IMG/VR virus record: IMGVR_UViG_3300038701_003025
Span: 1-37,676 of that record
DNA length: 37,676 bases
Strand: one strand, 5' to 3'
Source of the DNA: a virus
The position numbers and the translations under genes are program-made. The notes beneath the pieces are model-generated. The model was not told where the DNA came from, ran no database searches, and saw only the letters and a list, made by a program, of their open reading frames with translations. How positions within the stretch are numbered: the stretch's first letter is position 1; the number at the start of each line of letters is the position of its first letter. Below are positions 2,451 through 37,676 of this stretch, in pieces.

Positions 2451-2480
2451 GGTAGCTCCTTAGTGTTAATCTCTGTATCC

Positions 2481-2508
2481 AGTTTAACAGATATCGGAAT
2501 TATTGCAA
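2481..2508 (-). promoter_or_regulatory. candidate sigma70-type early promoter for the leftward arm
   Basis: On the minus strand: TTGCAA (2508..2503), 16-nt spacer, TAAACT (2486..2481). It lies about 30 nt upstream of the first leftward RBS. Confidence 0.4.
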
Positions 2509-2599
2509 GCTTTATAACCAGGAAAATGTCTAATTGCGCTATTAAAATTTAAAATTCGCCTTATTCCCATTACTTAGAGATAGTATTAATATAGAACTA

Positions 2600-2608
2600 T
2601 GGTATATA
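2600..2608 (+). promoter_or_regulatory. candidate extended -10 element (TGgTATATA)
   Basis: Shares the 10-mer CTATGGTATA with the element at 2829..2838. No good -35. Confidence 0.3.
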
Positions 2609-2831
2609 TTAAACTCTAAACCGATCATTCAACCAGGTAATTGTCACCTTAACCTTAACTTATAGAGGCTTTTCTGGAGACCTCTAACCAGGAATGAGTC
2701 TGTAATATTATAGCGCGGGTTAAAATTAAAAAGCGGCTTAGCTTTTCAAGCTCTAAATTATTGAAATTACTATCATAATTAAACTTTTTTCCTGGTTTCT
2801 TAATTTTTTAATATTCCTGAATTTATATCTA

Positions 2832-2840
2832 TGGTATAAT
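2832..2840 (+). promoter_or_regulatory. candidate extended -10 promoter (TGgTATAAT) reading rightward into the C-rich tract
   Basis: Perfect TGnTATAAT with AT-rich upstream DNA. The predicted TSS is near 2847, about 770 nt before the first + strand gene. Confidence 0.4.
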
Positions 2841-3584
2841 ATTTAGTATATTCCAATACATACAGAATTATATATTGAATAGCATTCGTTAGAATGCACA
2901 GGTGAAAGGGTCTTACGACCCGTCACTTACTTGAAAGCACTGGCGAATACTAGAATATTCTATAATACTTACCCCCCGGAGAATGCGCTGGATTGTTCTT
3001 AATGTGCCAGAGGATTCTAATGGCACTCTCCAACGCTCTCCAGACCACTCTAAAACTCTCCAAAACACTCCAAACTCCTGGGGAATACTCTGCCCAGAAA
3101 GAACTCTCCTAAAGCTCTCTAAAACACGCCCCCCGGTAGAATGTAAGGGGGGTACGAAAAGAGAGAGGGGAGAGTGTTCTGGGGAGAGGGCATACTACCC
3201 TAAGCACTCTCTAAGTCCTCTAAGCACCCTAAACCCCCCTCCCCCATAATTCTAGCCCTAGAACACTTTCTAGCAGCCTCCCCCCCGGTAACTCTCCTAG
3301 CACCCCTTAGCACATAACCGCTTTTAAAATTTGCCCCTGCGCCATTTAAAATTAAAAAGCGCCACAAACCCTGCACCGCATCCAAAACCTGGCTCAGATC
3401 GAATATATGAGCGTTAGAGCCTTACCTGGACAGAAAGCACTGCTCTAGCACAAAAAACGCCTTGCCTAGCAACACGGTAGGCAAATTACCTTAAACCAAA
3501 ATAGGCGATATTAGAGACTGTCAAAAAATCAGACACTTTATTAACTCCGACTATTAATTGCTAGAAAAAAAGGCTTGACAGCGT

Positions 3585-3613
3585 TTGACCGCTGCTAATA
3601 TTTCTGCTAGTAT
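3585..3613 (+). promoter_or_regulatory. candidate late/rightward promoter giving a leaderless mRNA
   Basis: TTGACC (3585..3590), 17-nt spacer, TGcTAGTAT (-10 at 3608..3613), 6 nt, then ATG at 3620. No Shine-Dalgarno sequence. Confidence 0.5.
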
Positions 3614-3619
3614 GTACAA

Positions 3620-4198
3620 ATGTCTGAAAAATCAAAAAACGCATTAGATTTTGAAAAAGAAAAGCTCAGATTAGAATATCTATTTGAGTCAAATATAGAC
3701 CTGGCTGGGAGAATTATCCGAATTACCGGTCCAATAGGCGATCAGACCTATGAGGAATTCGACTCCCAGCTATCCGAACTAGAACGAATGAATACGAGAA
3801 AAACCATTTTCGTAAGGATTAACTCTCCCGGCGGCTCCGTTTATGATGCACTGGCTATAGTAGGTAGAATGAAAGCCTCCTCGTGCCCAATTGTGACTGA
3901 AGCCTATGGTCATGTAATGAGTGCCGCCACTTTAATCCTTGCTTCTGGAAAACGCCGTAAAATGAGCCGCTTTGCGATGTTCATGCACCACAAATCCCAA
4001 TACATGGTTGGAGGGTCGCACGACGAGGTCGTAGATGAAGTTAGGCAGCAAGAAAGGGAAGAAAAACTCTGGAGTGAATGGATGAGCGAATTTTCCAAGA
4101 AAAGCCCCCAATTCTGGAGTACGGCAGCCAAAAAGAAAAACTACTATGCAACAGCCCAGGAATGTTTAGACCTAGGCGTTATTGACGAGATAATATGA
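3620..4198 (+). CDS. ClpP-like (S14 family) serine peptidase, probable prohead protease
   Basis: Motifs INSPGGSV, GHVMSAATLILASG (Ser) and MFMHH (His). First gene of the structural arm. Confidence 0.7.
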   Translation: MSEKSKNALDFEKEKLRLEYLFESNIDLAGRIIRITGPIGDQTYEEFDSQLSELERMNTRKTIFVRINSPGGSVYDALAIVGRMKASSCPIVTEAYGHVMSAATLILASGKRRKMSRFAMFMHHKSQYMVGGSHDEVVDEVRQQEREEKLWSEWMSEFSKKSPQFWSTAAKKKNYYATAQECLDLGVIDEII

Positions 4199-19871: not shown

Positions 19872-20978
19872 ATGGCAAATAAACAACACTGGGGAAAAAA
19901 TTCTTTTGAATTACCTCCAAAAACCCATGAGCAGATACTCTTAGAGAGAGAACGAATTAACCGCATGCGTGAAATGGAGCGTATACAAGGGCAAAAAGAT
20001 GCTGACGCAGCTAAAGCCCAGGCTACTAGAGACCTTATTTCAGGTGACGCTACCGCAGGTATAGATTTCGCTAAATCTAAACTAGGTCTAGGCGAAGGCT
20101 CGCTAGGACGCGCTAGCACTGTTAGTCAAATTGACGAAACCAAGTTTAGGGAAATGGCGGACGGGATGGATGCTGGCTTTCTTCAGGCTAGTAGGGATAA
20201 GGCAAAAGAAGAGATTAACCGATCAACTCAACTTCAAAACCGCAGGCTTCAGGCGCTTCAATCCCAGCAAGGGATAAGGGGAGCTACGGCAGGTTCTCAG
20301 CAAATGTCAATTTTACAAGCAGGTGAAAAGCAAAAGGCAGACTTTGAGCGCGACCTGTTTTTAAAAGATAGAGAAGCCAGGATAGAGGGACTTCAAAACT
20401 TAGCCGAAGTACAAAAATATAACCAGCAACAAATGGTTGAACAAGAGCGTTTTAATTTGGCGCAAGCGGCGCAAGAAAAGTACGATCTCGCTCAATCTGG
20501 TCTAGCGTTTTCTCAATTAGGGCTGCAAGAGCGAGGGAGTGAGCGAGCTAAAGAAGCTCAACAGGCAGCCGCAGCCGCTTCTTCTGGGTGTTTTGCTGAA
20601 GATACTGAAGTGTATATGGCAGACGGTACTACCAAGCCGATCGCCGAATTAAAATTGGGTGACCGCGTTATGGGAGGGGATGTAGTATATAACTACTTTG
20701 TTGGTGTAAATAGTGGAGAAGCCTACCTTTATGATGGTATTTGCGTTACCGGAACCCACGCTGTAAATCATGAAGGCGAATTTAAGCGCATAGAAGATAT
20801 TGATGAGCTAGATACAACTACTAAGGTAGACGTGGTTTTTAGCGTATCTACTAAAAATCATAAACTTATTATAAAAGGCGATTCTGGAAATCGGGTTGAA
20901 TTTGCTGACTATGACGAATGTTACGATGTAGACCTATCTGGGGAAGACCGCCTTAAAATTTTAAATAAGGGCATTTAG
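19872..20978 (+). CDS. internal virion protein candidate with C-terminal Hint (Hedgehog/intein-like) domain
   Basis: The N-terminal ~235 aa are Q/E/A-rich and coiled-coil-like. This is followed by CFAEDTEVYMADGTTKPIAELKLGDRVMGG and VTGTHAV (a TxxH block). Confidence 0.6.
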   Translation: MANKQHWGKNSFELPPKTHEQILLERERINRMREMERIQGQKDADAAKAQATRDLISGDATAGIDFAKSKLGLGEGSLGRASTVSQIDETKFREMADGMDAGFLQASRDKAKEEINRSTQLQNRRLQALQSQQGIRGATAGSQQMSILQAGEKQKADFERDLFLKDREARIEGLQNLAEVQKYNQQQMVEQERFNLAQAAQEKYDLAQSGLAFSQLGLQERGSERAKEAQQAAAAASSGCFAEDTEVYMADGTTKPIAELKLGDRVMGGDVVYNYFVGVNSGEAYLYDGICVTGTHAVNHEGEFKRIEDIDELDTTTKVDVVFSVSTKNHKLIIKGDSGNRVEFADYDECYDVDLSGEDRLKILNKGI

Positions 20979-25510: not shown

Positions 25511-25514
25511 AAAA

Positions 25515-25532
25515 GCCGGGAATTAACCCGGC
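25515..25532. terminator. terminator hairpin between the convergent arms (U-tract only in the leftward direction)
   Basis: GCCGGG, loop aattaa, CCCGGC. An A-run lies on the + strand 5' side, which reads as TTTTTATTT after the hairpin on the - strand. Confidence 0.7.
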
Positions 25533-25565
25533 AAATAACTAAGGAGAATAAGCTTTCACTTATCC

Positions 25566-25772
25566 TTATTCTACAGAAAATCCCAAAAGTTTGCAAGCAT
25601 TTTCATAAGTTTCTGATACCGGGATAGATAATCCGCTAATATAGACTAAAGTAGTATATTCAACCGTACCCTGCTCATCAATAATGTGAGTACGATTCCT
25701 AACTACTTCTACTTTGTCTGGATTTACTACCAAATCATTCCCCTCAATGTCTTTAAATTTTACAGTGTTCAT
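25566..25772 (-). CDS. hypothetical protein (68 aa)
   Basis: GAGGAGG RBS and ATGA coupling to the GT9 stop. Last gene of the leftward arm. Confidence 0.55.
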   Translation of the reverse strand: MNTVKFKDIEGNDLVVNPDKVEVVRNRTHIIDEQGTVEYTTLVYISGLSIPVSETYENACKLLGFSVE

Positions 25773-26729: not shown

Positions 26730-27239
26730 TTAAGCTCCTGTTTGGTTAAAAAAACGGTTATGCTCTCTTTTAGCCGCCCGATTATATAATTTAGCAGCGC
26801 CTTTTTCAGTGGTTGCTGAGCCAAGGTAAATGGTTTTACCGTTAATTCTAATGTTAGCTCCCCACTTATTTCCACTAGAAAGCTTATAAACCCCCTTGTA
26901 CTTAGAAGATGTTTTTCTAGCACTAGACTTATTATGCTGGTTTTGAGAGAGCGTTGCGCCCCTTAAATTTTTAACATTATTATTATAGGGGTTATTATCT
27001 ATATGATCGATGCACTCGTACTTATCCCAGTCTTTAATAAACGCGCTGGCTACTAACCGATGAACTTTATAGCATTTAGATACGCCGTTATGAGATATTT
27101 TAATCTCTGTTCTATGGCGCTTTACGTTTTTAAAGGTTTTTAAAATTCGGTCACTCTTAATGGAGTAAATTTCCCCTCGGTTTGATGCCATATATTTTCC
27201 GTCAAATCCAGGTATTTCTTTCCATAATTTAATTCGCAT
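26730..27239 (-). mobile_element. free-standing HNH homing endonuclease (NUMOD4-like + HNH + AP2 domains)
   Basis: Motifs WKEIPGFDGKYMASNRGEIYS, HRLVASAF...IDHIDNNPYNNNVKNLR...QNQHN and YKGVY...WGANIRINGKTIYLG...AAKLYN. Confidence 0.8.
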
Positions 27240-30319: not shown

Positions 30320-30485
30320 CAAGTAATTCCGGTTTTAGCATTATAGTGTATGCCAAATGCTTAGCTTTAACGCTGCTTCCTGCATGAGCCTTTTTTAAAT
30401 TCCTATATATTTTCCTTTGTTCTACAGGGTCGTCTGAAAATTGCTTAGCGGCTTCCCTTAGAAACCTGCATACTTTATTTCTCAT
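30294..30485 (-). CDS. hypothetical basic protein (63 aa)
   Basis: AAAGGAT RBS. Overlaps both neighbouring genes. Confidence 0.5.
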   Translation of the reverse strand: MRNKVCRFLREAAKQFSDDPVEQRKIYRNLKKAHAGSSVKAKHLAYTIMLKPELLDEIRSERD

Positions 30486-30822
30486 TATTAAATCCTTTGA
30501 AACGGTTATCTAAATCTACCTCAGGGTCAGCATTTCTTAAAATAGAGCTATAAAGAATCATAGCATTAGCCCCAATATGCAGGGCATGGTGAAAACCTGA
30601 CTCTTTGTCTACGTCTTCCCCTTGCATAAAAAGCATTAAATGCCTTAAAAGAGAATCACAGGGGGTTAGGTAATCCTGTCCTAGGGCGTAGTTAAACTTT
30701 TCGTACTTTACAGCACTTACTGTAATTAGGTGCGCTAAATGGGTAATAAACCGCGGGTCTAATTGTGTTATTTCTGGTTTTCCTGTATTGGCTCTTAACG
30801 AACCGGTTTCACTTCTATGCAT
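30475..30822 (-). CDS. DUF5664-like domain protein (N-terminal domain of dATP/dGTP diphosphohydrolases)
   Basis: The pattern GKPEITQLDPRF...AVKYEKFNY...LLRHLMLFMQGEDVDKESGFHHALH fits my recollection of that family. AAGGAGG RBS. Confidence 0.4.
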   Translation of the reverse strand: MHRSETGSLRANTGKPEITQLDPRFITHLAHLITVSAVKYEKFNYALGQDYLTPCDSLLRHLMLFMQGEDVDKESGFHHALHIGANAMILYSSILRNADPEVDLDNRFKGFNNEK

Positions 30823-31917: not shown

Positions 31918-34053
31918 TTACTCCGTTGTAGTATATGTTATTATGCTACTATCTCCCTCACCATTGTGAAAGGCTATTATCTTTTTATCATTAATAAGCT
32001 CTCTAATAATTGTTTCCCTTTCCCTTGGTTTAAGCCAGCGGGTAGCGTCATTAAAATTCGGCTGAGAAATGCCTTCTCCCGATTTTTTAATCAGATTATA
32101 AACCTTTACATATTTTGCCTCCGTTTCATTAGAGAAAATATGGTTTTCTACAACGTCTTCCATAATCCCTCTAAAGTACATTACTACCTGGAAAGCAAAT
32201 TCCACGTCCTCTTTTTCTACAATAGGGACGTTTTTGTGAGTACGGCTACAAGCCGAGATCATGGCGATTTTTAAAGTTTGCTGATAAAGCCTTGAAATAA
32301 TGGGTAAGAGGTTACTGTCCTCGGGAGTATTTTGTCTTTCCTCGTCAAGTTTCCTAAATACTTGATCTAGTAACCGGCTTCCTGGCAAACTTGCTTGAAT
32401 ATCGTAAACTCTTTGAGAAACATCTCCTAATTTAAAGCCAGAATCTTGCGGCGCTTCAAAGTTTTTCCAGAAAAGAAGCGTTTCTTTAACCGAATCTGGT
32501 AATGTAGCCCTACGGGTAATTCTATTGGCGGGCTGCTTACTCTCGCCTTTAAAAATTAGAAAGCGCCCTAGGAGACCTTTTTCAATAGCTTTTCGGTTAA
32601 CGCTTTCGGAAAAACCCGTAGGGGTCGTTGCACATAGCAAACTAACGTTCGGTCTATCGCACATCCCTTTCCTACCTTCAGCGGTCATCCTACCTAGAAA
32701 CCGTGATGATGAACTGGTATATAGTTCGCATAAAATATCTGCCATTTTACCATTATAGGCTTGATTTCCTCCAGTAACTCCTTTTAGAAGTCCTGAAGCC
32801 TCATCTATAATATCTACCCTGCATGGGTTAGTGGCAAGTTCATCCATTAAAGAGGCGTCTGAAACGTAATCTCCAGCGCCAAGTAAATAAAAAGCGTTTA
32901 TTTCTGATAAAACATTTTTTACCTCTTGCATTGGCTGGTCTTTTCCTGAGCCTGAGCCGGCAATATTTAATAAATAAAGGTTGGAGGCTACCCCTTGGAA
33001 TCTAGTTTTGCGTCCAATAAGGGTAGCCATTATGGAGAGAGAGGCGCTAAGGGCAAATGCTGGTTGCTTAACGTATGAGTTTTGGAGGATATAATTTACT
33101 AATCCGCCCAAAGCGCCTGGAGGGTTAAGGAATAATTCTTTTTCCCTTATGTTTTTTTGGTCGTCCTTGTTTTGTTCTTTTTTTTTTAAAATTTCTTCTA
33201 TGTAAGTTTCGTTTACAGCTGAAGCAGTTACCGGGACCTCATATTCCTGGTGTTTTTGAAAACGCTTGGCGTTTACCGACCTTAAATGGTTACTATAAAA
33301 AGTAAGGGCATTGGTAAAAGGTTCGTTATGTCCCCATTGTTGAATGTCTTCAAAAAGTGGTGCTTCGTGGTTTTCCTTATCAAACTTAATTAATTCTGTT
33401 AAAGCGTCGCTTACTGATTTTCCTTCCTGAATTATTTTACCACAAATAGAGCTTAGCGCGTCATTTCTGCCGTTTATTAATTTTACAGAACCGTCCGCTA
33501 CTGTTCCTGGCATCAATACCTGCAGCTTGTTTTGAAGCTCGGGAATTAAGCCGATTGGTAAACGGGGTAAGGTGTCTTTGTCGATGTCTAATAACCCCTT
33601 GTCTTCCCATGTATATTGGATTCCAGAAGGGTGCATGGAAGGAGGAATAGTTACCTTTTTCTTATTACTAAGGATTTCTACTACCACTTCGCCGTTATAT
33701 TTTAAAGAAAAGGATTCTTCCCCACTGTATTTAAAAAATCGCACCCAACCCTTTTTACCGTTTCTTTGGACAGGGGATGAGGGCATCATGTGCTCGATTA
33801 AATCAATAATTTCTGGGTCGGTTGAGTCGAAATCTAGGGCAATTACACCACTTGCCGAACCAAGACAGATATCTATATTGCTTTTGTCGAAAGCGTTTGA
33901 CCATGTAAGATATTCGGTATCTGTTGGCAGTTCATTACAATATTTTGTCCATTCCTTAATAGCAGGTAGTTTTGATTCATATTTTGCAGGAGTGGCGCTA
34001 TATCCTTGTTTAATATAGTCCCTACCATGGTCTTTATAAGCGTTATTACTCAT
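31918..34053 (-). CDS. bifunctional primase-polymerase (Prim-Pol) / helicase-like NTPase
   Basis: N-terminal motifs IALDFDS, GWVRFF and IPPSMHPSGIQYTW. C-terminal Walker A GSGSGKD and Walker B DIIDEASG (DUF3987-like). Confidence 0.75.
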   Translation of the reverse strand: MSNNAYKDHGRDYIKQGYSATPAKYESKLPAIKEWTKYCNELPTDTEYLTWSNAFDKSNIDICLGSASGVIALDFDSTDPEIIDLIEHMMPSSPVQRNGKKGWVRFFKYSGEESFSLKYNGEVVVEILSNKKKVTIPPSMHPSGIQYTWEDKGLLDIDKDTLPRLPIGLIPELQNKLQVLMPGTVADGSVKLINGRNDALSSICGKIIQEGKSVSDALTELIKFDKENHEAPLFEDIQQWGHNEPFTNALTFYSNHLRSVNAKRFQKHQEYEVPVTASAVNETYIEEILKKKEQNKDDQKNIREKELFLNPPGALGGLVNYILQNSYVKQPAFALSASLSIMATLIGRKTRFQGVASNLYLLNIAGSGSGKDQPMQEVKNVLSEINAFYLLGAGDYVSDASLMDELATNPCRVDIIDEASGLLKGVTGGNQAYNGKMADILCELYTSSSSRFLGRMTAEGRKGMCDRPNVSLLCATTPTGFSESVNRKAIEKGLLGRFLIFKGESKQPANRITRRATLPDSVKETLLFWKNFEAPQDSGFKLGDVSQRVYDIQASLPGSRLLDQVFRKLDEERQNTPEDSNLLPIISRLYQQTLKIAMISACSRTHKNVPIVEKEDVEFAFQVVMYFRGIMEDVVENHIFSNETEAKYVKVYNLIKKSGEGISQPNFNDATRWLKPRERETIIRELINDKKIIAFHNGEGDSSIITYTTTE

Positions 34054-34959: not shown

Positions 34960-35167
34960 TTTTACCCCCGTTAACTAGTTCAAAAACATTATCCATTTCT
35001 AAAATATAGATATTTGCTTGTAAACCGTCGGCAATTTTTTTATCAGAAAACCCTACTTTTTGCATAAATTGTACAAAATCTTCTATAATTTCAGAAGCGG
35101 TTAACTCCTCTGATATTGTTTCGCAGGAAATGTTTTTTAACTGGTCAGTAAAATTAAACTTTTTCAT
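34946..35167 (-). CDS. hypothetical acidic protein (73 aa)
   Basis: GGAGAAAAAG RBS, coupled to its neighbours. Confidence 0.5.
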   Translation of the reverse strand: MKKFNFTDQLKNISCETISEELTASEIIEDFVQFMQKVGFSDKKIADGLQANIYILEMDNVFELVNGGKNELQ

Positions 35168-35739
35168 TACTTTTTCTCCATTAGGTATTTATTTACATAT
35201 TTATTAGCTATACCATTATTATACACATTTTTACCAGAAATTGTCAAGTACCTTTTTGATTTTAAGCTAGGTAACATTTCCCTATATTTAACTGGGTTTA
35301 GTTTAAAGATTTTAGCTTCCGCCTCTAATCTAAACAGGTCATATATCATACAAGTGGTTAAACAGTGCCCTGTTTTGGCGTTGCCGGCTTGATGTTGCTC
35401 CCACCTACTATTTATATAGGCTATTCTTTTGTCGCAATTAGCATATATTGAAGCAGCCCCAGAAGCCCCGAGAACTAAGTGACAAGTAAAGGTAAAGCCG
35501 TGCTTTTCTTTCATTATTTTCATGAAGGTAATGATATTATTAGTTACGTCAAGATATCCTCCTGGAGAATTGATAAGTAATACTATCTCTTTCCCCTTTA
35601 TATTGGCTTTATCTAGGTCTACGGCAAGCGTTTCTAGGGACCGGTCTAAAATAGGACCATATATCTGGGCATCTATTTTGAGTTTGCCTTGGGCGCACCC
35701 TGAAATCGCCATAATTAACATTAATAATACTATTTTCAT
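35167..35739 (-). CDS. ClpP/S14-like serine peptidase with lipoprotein signal peptide
   Basis: MKIVLLMLIMAISGC carries a lipobox (ISGC). Motifs LINSPGGY, LGASGAASIY and WEQHQ. AAGGAG RBS. Confidence 0.6.
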   Translation of the reverse strand: MKIVLLMLIMAISGCAQGKLKIDAQIYGPILDRSLETLAVDLDKANIKGKEIVLLINSPGGYLDVTNNIITFMKIMKEKHGFTFTCHLVLGASGAASIYANCDKRIAYINSRWEQHQAGNAKTGHCLTTCMIYDLFRLEAEAKIFKLNPVKYREMLPSLKSKRYLTISGKNVYNNGIANKYVNKYLMEKK

Positions 35740-37552: not shown

Positions 37553-37676
37553 TTAGTTATCTTTAATATAGTTTAACATTTCTAAGTTATATTTGCAAGC
37601 TTTAAGTAAAAACTCTTTAGTTTTAAATTCTTCATTAATATAGTGTAAAGCATACTCACTTTTCTTAACAGCTTCT
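37553..37676 (-). CDS. C-terminal part of DUF4116-type repeat protein paralog 2 (continues from 1..349 across the junction)
   Basis: Stop at 37553..37555. The tail ...EEFKTKEFLLKACKYNLEMLNYIKDN is nearly identical to the tail of paralog 1. Confidence 0.75.
   Translation of the reverse strand, partial: EAVKKSEYALHYINEEFKTKEFLLKACKYNLEMLNYIKDN
37624..37676. repeat. 53-bp terminal overlap identical to nt 1..53 (circular assembly closure)
   Basis: Direct comparison of the window suffix and prefix. Confidence 0.9.

Follow-up and report, generated by a model that had tools for sequence, protein, structure and literature searches.

In phage N4, the early promoters consist of DNA hairpins (5-bp stem, 3-nt loop) that are read by a virion RNA polymerase. 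In phages T7 and T3, the terminal repeats and their flanks contain a C5-ATA-G5 element followed by TACC, on a C-rich top strand, together with arrays of the motif CCTAAAG, whose copies are 10-23 nt apart, in most cases 10-15 nt. Phage SU10 has a read-verified terminal repeat of 193 bp with blunt ends, and run-length heterogeneity occurs within this repeat (PMC4281155). Motifs of the GCGAAGC type are found at phage and plasmid priming sites, for example in G4 and in ssiA of RSF1010 (PMC13037366).

The window analyzed here is the whole 37,676-nt stretch of IMG/VR virus record IMGVR_UViG_3300038701_003025, a 37.6-kb circular assembly with an end overlap of 53 bp. Its largest gene-free gap spans positions 2451-3619 (1169 nt), followed by the convergent junction at 25511-25768 (258 nt) and a gap of 110 nt, the median gap being 0. 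The two gene arms diverge around the gap, the minus arm starting from 2450 and the plus arm from 3620, which bears out the preliminary description of a gene-free region of about 1.17 kb at the divergence point; it is the sole large gap. It lies directly upstream of the genes for protease, TerS, TerL, and portal, and separates the small genes of the minus arm from protease-TerS-TerL. Open reading frames of 88, 61, 51, and 35 aa within the gap showed no protein-level conservation in the relatives examined, and a protein-coding role for them was dropped for this reason; in contrast, a neighboring 58-aa gene is kept in all relatives examined. A tRNA/tmRNA search gave no match, nor did DNA similarity searches against 50,697 phage records in near and distant modes, and a metagenome scan with the core sequence (listed below) found nothing.

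Our results indicate that the region is a conserved control hub between two predicted outward-facing promoters. The function we favor, with about even confidence and by analogy, is that of a T7/SU10-type concatemer junction of a non-permuted genome, with a short direct terminal repeat and terminase signals. Three candidate roles had been put forward beforehand: replication origin, packaging/terminal-repeat junction, and long structured ncRNA. The second is the best supported because of its position, its T7/T3/SU10-like anatomy, its paired C-runs, and the pile-up of assembly breaks; the third found no support. The elements of the region are, from left to right:

2481..2508, minus strand: candidate promoter of the minus (early) arm, predicted; TTGCAA, 16-nt spacer, TG-extended TAAACT
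2515, 2630, and 2685 (direct) and 2787-2797 (inverted), no strand assigned: AACCAGG-N6-GTC motif from the repeat search, families D3 and I18
2536-2558 and 2713-2735, plus strand: GCGC..TTAAAATTAAAAAGCG motif, two direct copies from the repeat search, families D2, I6, and I17
2747..2880, no strand assigned: AT-rich block of ~24.5% GC, with the cumulative AT-skew minimum at 2852
2882-2897, no strand assigned: hairpin GCATTC-gtta-GAATGC
2908-2921, no strand assigned: hairpin GGGTC-ttac-GACCC, member of a family that is arrayed in relatives
2972..2986, plus strand: copy 1 of the C-run motif, CCCCCCGGAGAATG, lying 157 nt before the core; repeat families D9 and D16
3023..3128, plus strand: iterated CTCTCC / CACTCT motifs with partly exact 10-nt spacing; repeat families D1, D4, and D15
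3129..3152, plus strand: core, CCCCCC-GGTAGAATGTAA-GGGGGG followed by TAC, at the apex of a longer, imperfect hairpin that spans 3088-3188
3153..3190, plus strand: purine-rich block AAAAGAGAGAGGGGAGAGTGTTCTGGGGAGAGG, the sole G-rich spot, complementary to the flanking CTCTCC repeats; families I2, I7, and I12-I14
3197..3245, plus strand: 9-10-nt repeats (ACCCTAAGC / CTCTAAG), ending in C6-T-C5
3280..3290, plus strand: copy 3 of the C-run motif, CCCCCCCGGTA, lying 151 nt after the core; family D20
3315..3361, no strand assigned: box AACCGCTTTTAAAATT in an AT-rich inverted repeat with arms 3319-3332 and 3348-3361; family I17
3462..3484, no strand assigned: hairpin TTGCCTA-gcaacacgg-TAGGCAA, whose 9-nt loop is semi-conserved (R-C-A-R-N-A-N-G-G)
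3585..3613, plus strand: promoter of the plus (structural) arm, predicted; TTGACC, 17-nt spacer, TG-extended TAGTAT

When circularized, SU10 shows the same map, with minus-strand small genes, ~0.8 kb of non-coding DNA including the repeat, small genes, and then TerL. Its TerL gene lies 2.1 kb from the end and is followed by portal, scaffold, and capsid genes; in the window, TerL lies ~2 kb from the junction. The portal, adaptor, and capsid proteins of the window match the SU10 Pfam families above cut-offs, and the 826-aa protein after the adaptor is presumably the tail nozzle protein, given the expected gene order. Pairwise similarity of TerL and portal to SU10 is marginal, with kinship visible at the profile level only. 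The SU10 and phiEco32 (Kuravirus) repeat carries iterated ACGGGGA motifs, to which the iterated G/C-run motifs of the window correspond. SU10 differs in its 77-kb genome, which is twice the size, in carrying its run motif on the opposite strand relative to TerL, and in having no C-run/spacer/G-run core.

T7 and T3, in which arrays of short repeats (SRL and SRR) lie on either side of the terminal repeat, resemble the window in having 0.7-1 kb of non-coding DNA with a C-rich, G-poor top strand beside terminase genes and early promoters. A comparison of short-motif arrays with those of T7, T3, SP6, and SU10 found such arrays in the window, where CTCTAAG, CCCTAAG, and CTCTCC take the place of CCTAAAG; the repeats at 3197..3245 in particular resemble the arrays that flank the terminal repeats of T7 and T3. 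The switch from C-run/G-run in T7 to C-run/C-run in T3 is mirrored by two relatives of the window phage (L026 versus L050; relative loci carry L numbers), and the similar sequences at both repeat boundaries of T7 and SU10 have a possible counterpart in the paired CCCCCCGGTA of the window. The likeness to T7/T3 is one of style and position, with no sequence homology. Unlike T7/T3, the window phage has no phage RNA polymerase and phi-type promoters, and its genes run outward both ways, whereas those of T7/T3 all run one way. To our knowledge, T7 has not been described as carrying GC-hairpin arrays with 3-nt loops. A T7/SU10-type function would be fairly ordinary, with some unusual structural details; if the ends are indeed located here, the region serves an ordinary purpose in an unusual form, and if not, it poses a harder puzzle.

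The base composition of the gap stands out within the genome. The C fraction reaches 0.39 at 3201-3400 versus 0.192 on average for the genome (sd 0.034), the top six 200-nt windows by C content all fall within 3051-3500, and the C-rich part has a GC skew of -0.56. Four of the five runs of at least six C in the genome sit in the gap, which makes up 3% of it, confirming the earlier report of a C-rich segment with C runs; it is the most C-rich DNA of the genome. The AT-rich segment described alongside it is real, with 24.5% GC at 2701-2900, but is only the third lowest in GC content in the genome. The statement that the motifs are exclusive to this region went too far, as they are enriched rather than unique: five of eight plus-strand copies of CTCTCC and three of four copies of CCCCGG lie inside the gap.

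Strong predicted promoters were found in our sigma-70 weight-matrix scan only at the two edges, both facing outward, and no strong inward-pointing promoter was detected (inward scores of at most 8.4 versus 12-14 at the edges). The candidate early promoter, the top minus-strand match with a score of 12.4, lies ~24 nt upstream of an AAGGAG ribosome-binding site and the ATG at 2450; at the same edge, marine relatives show the consensus TTGACA-N17-TATTAT plus an A-tract. The plus-arm promoter has the best score in the gap (13.6). Its -10 element and the ATG at 3620 are 6 nt apart, and the plus-arm mRNA is therefore probably leaderless; relatives share this geometry, with the -10 element 6-7 nt ahead of the plus-arm ATG. 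On the left side, the copies of AACCAGG-N6-GTC are candidate regulator or promoter-associated sites. Three of four plus-strand copies of AACCAGG are inside the gap, and motifs of the AACCAG/ACCTGG type also recur in relatives. The motif GCGC..TTAAAATTAAAAAGCG occurs twice more at 3319-3361, once direct and once inverted.

Relatives were gathered by an IMG/VR TerL scan with alignment; an IMG/VR scan for close TerL relatives with a single protein yielded nothing. The phage is a member of a widespread uncultured lineage: TerL relatives number in the hundreds across marine and other metagenomes, and no isolated phage exceeds ~26% identity. Sequencing runs SRR15330771 and SRR15330762 contain this phage; for the relatives, the data sets are ERZ27315841 and SRR3139690/91 (L003/L004) and SRR21285602 (L007). 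The nearest characterized TerL matches are T5-like terminally redundant phages at 24%, next to uncharacterized pelagiphages at 26%, values too remote to indicate a packaging type. A genome-collection scan for the host returned only five metagenome-bin contigs from unrelated phyla and gave no assignment.

The preliminary description had raised the case of relatives lacking the region. Instead, relatives at 41-86% TerL identity have a non-coding region of 0.5-1.7 kb in the same place and with the same layout, consisting of edge promoters, covarying GC hairpins, 9-10-nt iterated motifs, and a core of C-run, ~11 nt, and G-run. The label 'compositionally foreign' is therefore misleading, and wrong in the sense of a recent acquisition, because relatives keep the region in position and layout. 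Across the family, runs of at least five C reach a density of 2.20 per kb here, versus 0.23 per kb elsewhere, and the TerL-sense strand of 33 loci carries 116 C-runs versus 25 G-runs in the region. At the sequence level the region is unalignable between phages whose genes are 71-76% identical, and near-identical strains show 95.2% identity with 7 gaps in the region, including indels of repeat units, versus 99.6% in genes; run lengths in the SU10 terminal repeat are likewise heterogeneous. Close relatives carry different iterated motifs, and no variable DNA-binding protein matching this variation was identified.

Metagenome contigs of relatives break at the region far above chance. Upstream contig ends lie 1.5-3.5 kb before TerL in 40 of 69 cases, and the downstream ends show an even spread. 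Of 12 contigs from close relatives, 8 begin within the region; among these, five Logan contigs begin 3-118 nt upstream of C-run copy 3 (3280..3290). The ends are scattered over the region, not stacked at one coordinate, and strain hypervariability or low coverage also explains this scatter. Three near-full-length relative contigs ending here have no terminal duplication, the first 37-39 nt occurring once in each. The circular assembly with its 53-bp overlap fits a collapsed terminal repeat and every other packaging mode alike. The portal has its better score against the P22-type family, and P22 packages by a headful mechanism.

Scattered contig ends and a P22-type portal would also agree with the region being a fast-evolving regulatory spacer of divergent promoters and operator-like repeats read by phage regulators, in a phage whose packaging is headful or starts elsewhere and whose contig breaks reflect strain hypervariability. 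The predicted promoters at both edges, the repeated AACCAGG-N6-GTC and TTAAAATT...GCG motifs, the failure to align, and the strain indels agree with such a spacer, which we nevertheless judge unlikely. The distance of ~1 kb between the core promoters is far beyond operator needs, the persistence of C-runs, core, and structure-conserved hairpins over the whole range of TerL identity is a misfit for operators, and the freely covarying stems point to nucleic-acid structure rather than to palindromic protein sites.

The core was compared over 18 fetched loci of relatives, where it takes the form C5-9, ~10-13 nt, G4-6, and usually TA(C/G), located 1.65-2.4 kb upstream of TerL. The sequence of its spacer is not conserved, some relatives have a C-run in place of the G-run, and about one third of the distant relative loci spanning the region have no C-run/G-run core. 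A purine-rich block comparable to that at 3153..3190 also follows the core in L003, L007, and L110. The extended core fold (3088-3188) reaches -24.7 kcal/mol as DNA (z = -4.4); this long extended hairpin around the core was set aside as a candidate element, being significant in the window and not in L003 or L007.

The dyad-symmetric C6-N12-G6 form of the core, its conserved spacer length, and its proximity to the terminase genes would suit a lambda-type cos site with symmetric nicks at the C-run and the G-run, as would the full-length relative contigs that end here without a terminal repeat. A cos site was rejected, since the dyad symmetry is not conserved among relatives, being lost in L043, L050, and L053, where a C-run is followed by a C-run. 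Contig ends also do not coincide at the core, and no affinity of TerL to terminases of the lambda or HK97 type was detectable; we regard this explanation as highly improbable.

The paired C-runs are suggestive of a direct terminal repeat. The repeat search found CCCCCCGGTA as an exact 10-mer at 3129 and 3281, a spacing of 152 nt. In L003, L092, and L110, the sequence flanking the C-run of the core is found again 138-188 nt downstream, the two varying in step between genomes, and in L007 the downstream C-run copies have a different flank from the core. From this motif pairing we propose that copy 3 (3280..3290) is the right boundary of a terminal repeat of ~150 bp; the corresponding predictions for relatives are ~154 bp in L003/L004 and 115-147 bp in L007. 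Between copy 1 and the core, Tandem Repeats Finder reported periods of 10 and 20 in the CTCTCC / CACTCT stretch, and relatives carry arrays of analogous motifs with other sequences. To the right of the core, the block TAACCGCTTTTTAAATTT of the box at 3315..3361 is kept in an alignment of 7 relatives, and the box is a candidate binding site for TerS or another protein. The helix-turn-helix of TerS is highly conserved, nearly invariant, across the same 7 relatives. Binding of TerS to the variable iterated motifs was rejected; TerS more likely reads conserved boxes, because its helix-turn-helix is almost invariant while the iterated motifs differ.

At a packaging junction of this kind, PolA, PrimPol-helicase, and exonuclease would produce head-to-tail concatemers, TerS would bind the conserved boxes right of the core, and TerL would nick at the two C-run copies ~150 bp apart (~3129 and ~3281). 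These nicks would delimit a short direct terminal repeat that is subsequently duplicated, and the short hairpins on the left may serve as snap-back or priming aids in this duplication. Packaging would proceed rightward into the structural arm, in which case the last-packaged end, with the early promoter at 2481-2508, would enter the next host first. The location of the ends would set the true linear map, predict the genes that enter the host first, and explain the frequent assembly breaks at one spot in the lineage. The covarying hairpins and the paired C-runs are specific cis-elements that may serve in packaging or priming.

Short hairpins are enriched in the gap. The family of GGGTC-ttac-GACCC has 3 copies in L003 and 6 in L007, with GTTAC before each; over 8 copies, 95.8% of cells are paired and 13 cells are changed on both sides, with no G-U pair, and none of 500 shuffles reached the observed level of covariation. 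This GTTAC hairpin is present as a single copy in the window, and the array is absent from distant relatives. For the hairpin at 3462..3484, compared in 7 genomes, six of seven pairs are changed on both sides and 93.9% of cells are paired, again with no G-U pairs and with none of 500 shuffles matching. Two spots in the gap are locally structured, with z-scores of -3.8 (the hairpin pair at 2882..2921) and -6.0, and the C-rich stretch 3201-3400 is essentially unstructured (z ~0). Marine relatives carry an invariant GAGCGAAGCGA cap holding a very stable GCGAAGC DNA mini-hairpin. Read as the plus strand, the capped hairpin that precedes their plus promoter is paired in 100% of cells, 7 G-U pairs included; read as the minus strand, it reaches 95.8%, and this hints that the plus strand is the folding strand.

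This strand difference, the two structured spots, and a TG-extended TATAAT at 2832-2840 that points into the region would agree with transcription of the region into one or more ncRNAs or a long leader, such as an unstructured, C-rich Rho-loading sequence with nut-like hairpins or a G-rich antisense RNA. We consider this quite improbable. There was no Rfam match at the gathering threshold, the lone microRNA match being at chance level (E = 0.21), and inward promoter scores and folding at 3201-3400 are as low as given above. Both hairpin families of the window are without any G-U pair, and in the core a C-run can take the place of the G-run, so that no hairpin is left there. No terminator was predicted in the central region, and the lone terminator-like hit, at 3579-3594, overlaps the plus-arm promoter. 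A sponge RNA for CsrA or Shine-Dalgarno binding, suggested by the GGAG-rich minus strand, was rejected, as the motif is clade-specific and no inward promoter was found. A G-quadruplex was also rejected, the loops between runs being too long.

The window resembles N4 in that short GC hairpins with 3-nt loops occur in tandem close to a probable end of the genome, and one relative (L104) carries a GCGGAGC cap. It differs in that the hairpin loops are pyrimidine-rich, not GAA or GGA. PHROG, Pfam, and PDB searches found no RNA polymerase domain in the large proteins of the 37.6-kb genome, and PDB sequence searches with the 826-aa and 670-aa proteins gave no match. N4-like hairpin promoters were rejected, since no RNA polymerase gene was found.

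The hairpins and the AT-rich block bear on a replication origin, which can coexist with packaging. Here an initiator, perhaps the PrimPol-helicase, would bind the phased repeats and the AT-rich block would melt, bracketed by the GC tracts; the GC hairpins would act as single-strand initiation signals, and forks would move co-directionally with transcription on both arms. The AT-rich block (2701-2900) adjoins the 10-nt-phased repeats (3023-3128), the stems of 5-6 bp with 3-nt loops covary by Watson-Crick changes only, as DNA would, and the GCGAAGC mini-hairpin of marine relatives is of a type known at priming sites. In addition, one protein of the phage joins an AEP-type PrimPol to a helicase-like domain. 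As in the RSF1010 oriV (ssiA/ssiB) and the G4 origin, direct repeats and GC-rich and AT-rich tracts occur together, along with short stable 3-nt-loop hairpins, the GCGAAGC type in relatives, and an AEP-type primase encoded by the phage. Unlike in those origins, however, the window repeats are only 9-10 nt long and variable between close relatives, and the initiator gene is not adjacent; a role in initiation is putative.

The AT-skew and GC-skew minima fall at 2852 and 4003, respectively, with maxima at the convergent junction, but this pattern is wholly confounded with gene orientation. As expected of an iteron origin, at least three direct repeats lie beside an AT-rich element, though they are shorter than typical iterons, and neither an adjacent initiator gene nor a DnaA box (at no more than one mismatch in the region) was found. 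The PrimPol-helicase is encoded at 31918-34053, ~6 kb away, and terminase genes are adjacent instead. The GTTAC array missing in distant relatives and the iterated motifs varying with no matching DNA-binding protein also count against an origin, which has no need of strand-biased C-runs. We hold an origin, the chief competitor of the packaging explanation, to be possible but rather doubtful.

Packaging and priming could also be linked. It is conceivable, although unlikely, that the AEP-type PrimPol-helicase or the terminase reads extruded single-stranded DNA hairpins and thereby primes duplication of the terminal repeat or starts replication. Just as tentatively, such a system of end processing or initiation, combining hairpins with strand-biased C-runs, may be previously undescribed and distinct from T7, N4, and RSF1010. 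The hairpin set in question comprises those with GC stems of 5-6 bp and 3-nt loops, arrayed 1-6 times, the hairpin with the conserved loop, and the GCGAAGC-capped one in relatives.

The divergence point of the two gene arms had been described as free of genes, and this holds: the gap at 2451-3619 measures 1169 nt and is the largest in the window, the other real gaps being one of 110 nt and the 258-nt junction where the arms converge and a likely terminator lies, with the rest below 70 nt. ORFs within the gap show no protein-level conservation among relatives, and the 58-aa gene neighbouring it is conserved in all relatives compared. The C-rich segment is a true extreme: its C fraction is 0.39, where the genome averages 0.192 +/- 0.034, its GC skew is -0.56, and four of the genome's five C runs of 6 nt or more sit in the region. 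The AT-rich segment of the preliminary description is real (24.5% GC) but not unique in the genome, and the iterated motifs said to occur nowhere else turned out to be enriched in the region, not exclusive to it.

Comparison of the ends revealed 53 identical bases at 1-53 and 37624-37676, so the window is a circular assembly of ~37,623 bp (~37.62 kb; GC 38.7%). The minus arm runs from 2450 through coordinate 1 down to 25769 and, besides numerous small genes, encodes an SLT lysozyme, a PrimPol-helicase, an exonuclease, and a PolA-type DNA polymerase. The plus arm (3620-25510) begins with a ClpP-type protease, TerS with a helix-turn-helix, and TerL, and further encodes a P22/SU10-type portal, an SU10-type capsid protein, an SU10-type adaptor, and tail and internal proteins. 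TerL shares no more than 26% identity with that of any cultured phage and the portal ~22%, and the window has no DNA match; by these comparisons, the phage has no close cultured relative.

Relatives were collected through TerL homologues as a close set (61-86% TerL identity; loci L003/L004, L007, L008, L009, L090-L092, L110, and L111) and a distant set of 80 IMG/VR loci (41-54% identity). A non-coding region at the divergence point is present in all relatives of both sets, measuring 1.3 kb in L003, 1.67 kb in L007, and ~0.5-0.8 kb in distant marine relatives. BLAST alignment of the region fails between phages with 71-76% identical genes, and repeat-unit indels distinguish the regions of two strains whose genes are 99.6% identical. 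The sequence of the region evolves fast, whereas the following layout persists.

Layout of the region, left to right in the TerL sense (window coordinates where given)
2508-2481, minus strand: predicted promoter at the minus-arm edge, score 12.4
AT-rich DNA with AACCAG-type motifs
Short GC hairpins
Arrays of 9-10-nt motifs
3129-3152: core, consisting of a C-run, an ~11-nt spacer, and a G-run, then TAC/TAG
Purine-rich block
Additional C-rich repeats and C-run motifs
Conserved AACCGCTTTTAAAATT box
3462-3484: hairpin with a semi-conserved loop
3585-3613, plus strand: predicted plus-arm promoter, score 13.6

Counted on the TerL-sense strand of 33 loci, C runs of 5 nt or more reach 2.20 per kb inside the region and 0.23 per kb outside it, and C-runs outnumber G-runs on that strand by 116 to 25.

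The promoters are the two strong predictions of our own sigma-70-type weight-matrix scan, in which no inward-pointing promoter in the region scored above 8.4. At the sites compared (window 3608-3622, L003, L008, L016, and L026-L053), the plus-arm -10 element ends 6-7 nt ahead of the first gene's start codon, and no Shine-Dalgarno sequence precedes this gene. With only 6 nt between the -10 element and the ATG in the window, the plus-arm mRNA is probably leaderless, and the comparison suggests that this is conserved for the first structural-arm gene across the window and its relatives. That the region serves purely as a regulatory spacer between such promoters is unlikely. Folding in sliding windows detected structure at two places only, 2841-2960 (z = -3.8) and 3081-3200 (z = -6.0); the stretch at 3201-3400, rich in C, did not fold, and an Rfam search returned nothing. 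Given these results and the promoter scan, the long structured RNA proposed earlier is unsupported; we consider a non-coding RNA very unlikely, and it is most likely as DNA that the central kilobase acts.

Short GC stems preceded by GTTAC are concentrated in the region, with one copy in the window (2908-2921), three in L003, and six in L007. Pairing holds in 95.8% of cells across 8 copies, a value reached by 0/500 shuffles, with 13 cells changed on both sides and zero G-U pairs. Both sides of the hairpin at 3462-3484 change at 6/7 pairs across 7 genomes, again with no G-U pair, and its 9-nt loop is semi-conserved. Marine relatives (L013-L053) carry an AT-rich hairpin with covarying stems and an invariant GAGCGAAGCGA cap ~25-45 nt upstream of the plus-arm -35 element (e.g., L026 562-605). 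In this hairpin every cell (100%) pairs on the plus strand, 7 of the pairs being G-U, a type found on that strand only; on the minus strand, 95.8% of cells pair. The cap, which the window itself does not have and which is GCGGAGC in L104, contains GCGAAGC, a DNA mini-hairpin of high stability that is known at priming sites of phages and plasmids and in N4 promoters (PMC13037366).

This mini-hairpin in relatives, the DNA-type hairpins, the AT-rich block, the phased repeats, and the PrimPol gene would all suit a replication origin, the main rival to a packaging junction and compatible with it; however, DnaA boxes are absent from the region, the initiator gene is distant, and the skew pattern is confounded with gene orientation, which leaves an origin rather doubtful.

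Our leading explanation, which we give roughly an even chance, places the concatemer junction of a terminally redundant genome in the central part of the region. Anatomy, conservation, and covariation are observed; physical ends, nicking sites, and hairpin roles are what we infer. A terminal repeat of ~150 bp would span roughly 3129-3281, with terminase recognition elements to its right and the promoters of both arms at the region edges, and the last-packaged end, where the early genes lie, would be the first to enter the host. CCCCCCGGTA is found at both 3129 and 3281, and in the relatives L003, L092, and L110 the flank of the core C-run differs between genomes yet matches a copy 138-188 nt downstream. 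T7 and SU10 have similar sequences at both terminal-repeat boundaries. In T7 and T3, the terminal repeats and flanks are C-rich on the top strand and carry CCTAAAG arrays spaced 10-23 nt (mostly 10-15) apart. Near the left end of its terminal repeat, T7 has C5-ATA-G5 then TACC (24-42), and T3 has C8-ATAG-C4 at the equivalent site (24-44), the second run being inverted in place. The same switch from inverted to direct runs separates L026 from L050 in the window's lineage; in L043, L050, and L053 a C-run replaces the core G-run and the TACC after it is unchanged, so the core need not form a hairpin. SU10 has a blunt-ended, 193-bp terminal repeat shown by reads (PMC4281155). When circularised, its map is the same as the window's, TerL lying 2.1 kb from the end, and its repeat contains iterated ACGGGGA motifs and homopolymer runs of varying length. 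The likeness to T7, T3, and SU10 is one of position and style, not detectable homology.

Contigs of the lineage also break in this region. Among IMG/VR loci, 40/69 upstream contig ends fall 1.5-3.5 kb before TerL, and downstream ends are evenly spread. Of 12 contigs from close relatives, eight begin within the region, and the starts of five contigs, each from a different phage or sample, lie 3-118 nt upstream of the second copy of the C-run motif. Ends within the region are scattered, not stacked, and three near-full-length contigs ending there have no terminal duplication. This pattern is consistent with a short terminal repeat of low or heterogeneous coverage and also with strain hypervariability alone; it is at odds with the precise cut of a cos site, which we regard as the least probable reading, highly improbable in itself.

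Several further features were recorded in the arms. At their convergent junction, a GC-rich stem with a T-run after it (GCCGGG-ttaatt-CCCGGC; 25515-25532, minus) is likely a terminator. The first structural-arm gene encodes the ClpP-type protease in the window (3620-4198) and its closest relatives, and is replaced by an ~110-aa HExxH-motif protein in L003 (4393-4722), L110 (910-1248; weak Peptidase_M78 match), and L028 (1387-1722). A second, weak ClpP/serine-protease-like protein of 190 aa with a lipoprotein-like N-terminus lies in the early arm (35167-35739, minus). A 115-aa protein (30475-30822, minus) matches PF18909, the dATP/dGTP diphosphohydrolase N-terminal domain (E = 2.5e-17), a family associated with phages whose DNA contains non-canonical bases; a PurZ-like gene was not seen, and the match could hint at modified DNA.

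Traces of mobile elements comprise a NUMOD4 + HNH + AP2 homing endonuclease (26730-27239, minus) and a Hint (intein-like) domain in a 368-aa protein of the structural arm (19872-20978, plus); the 803-aa TerL of L092 (1963-4374) carries a LAGLIDADG intein. Tandem DNA repeats of 66 bp (198 bp) occur within at least one coding sequence (17-322 and 751-1434, minus), and the 227-aa product of the tract contains five DUF4116 repeats (E = 3e-55). The assembly cut of the window falls within a tandemly repeated gene, with the join in a tract resembling the 66-bp repeats.
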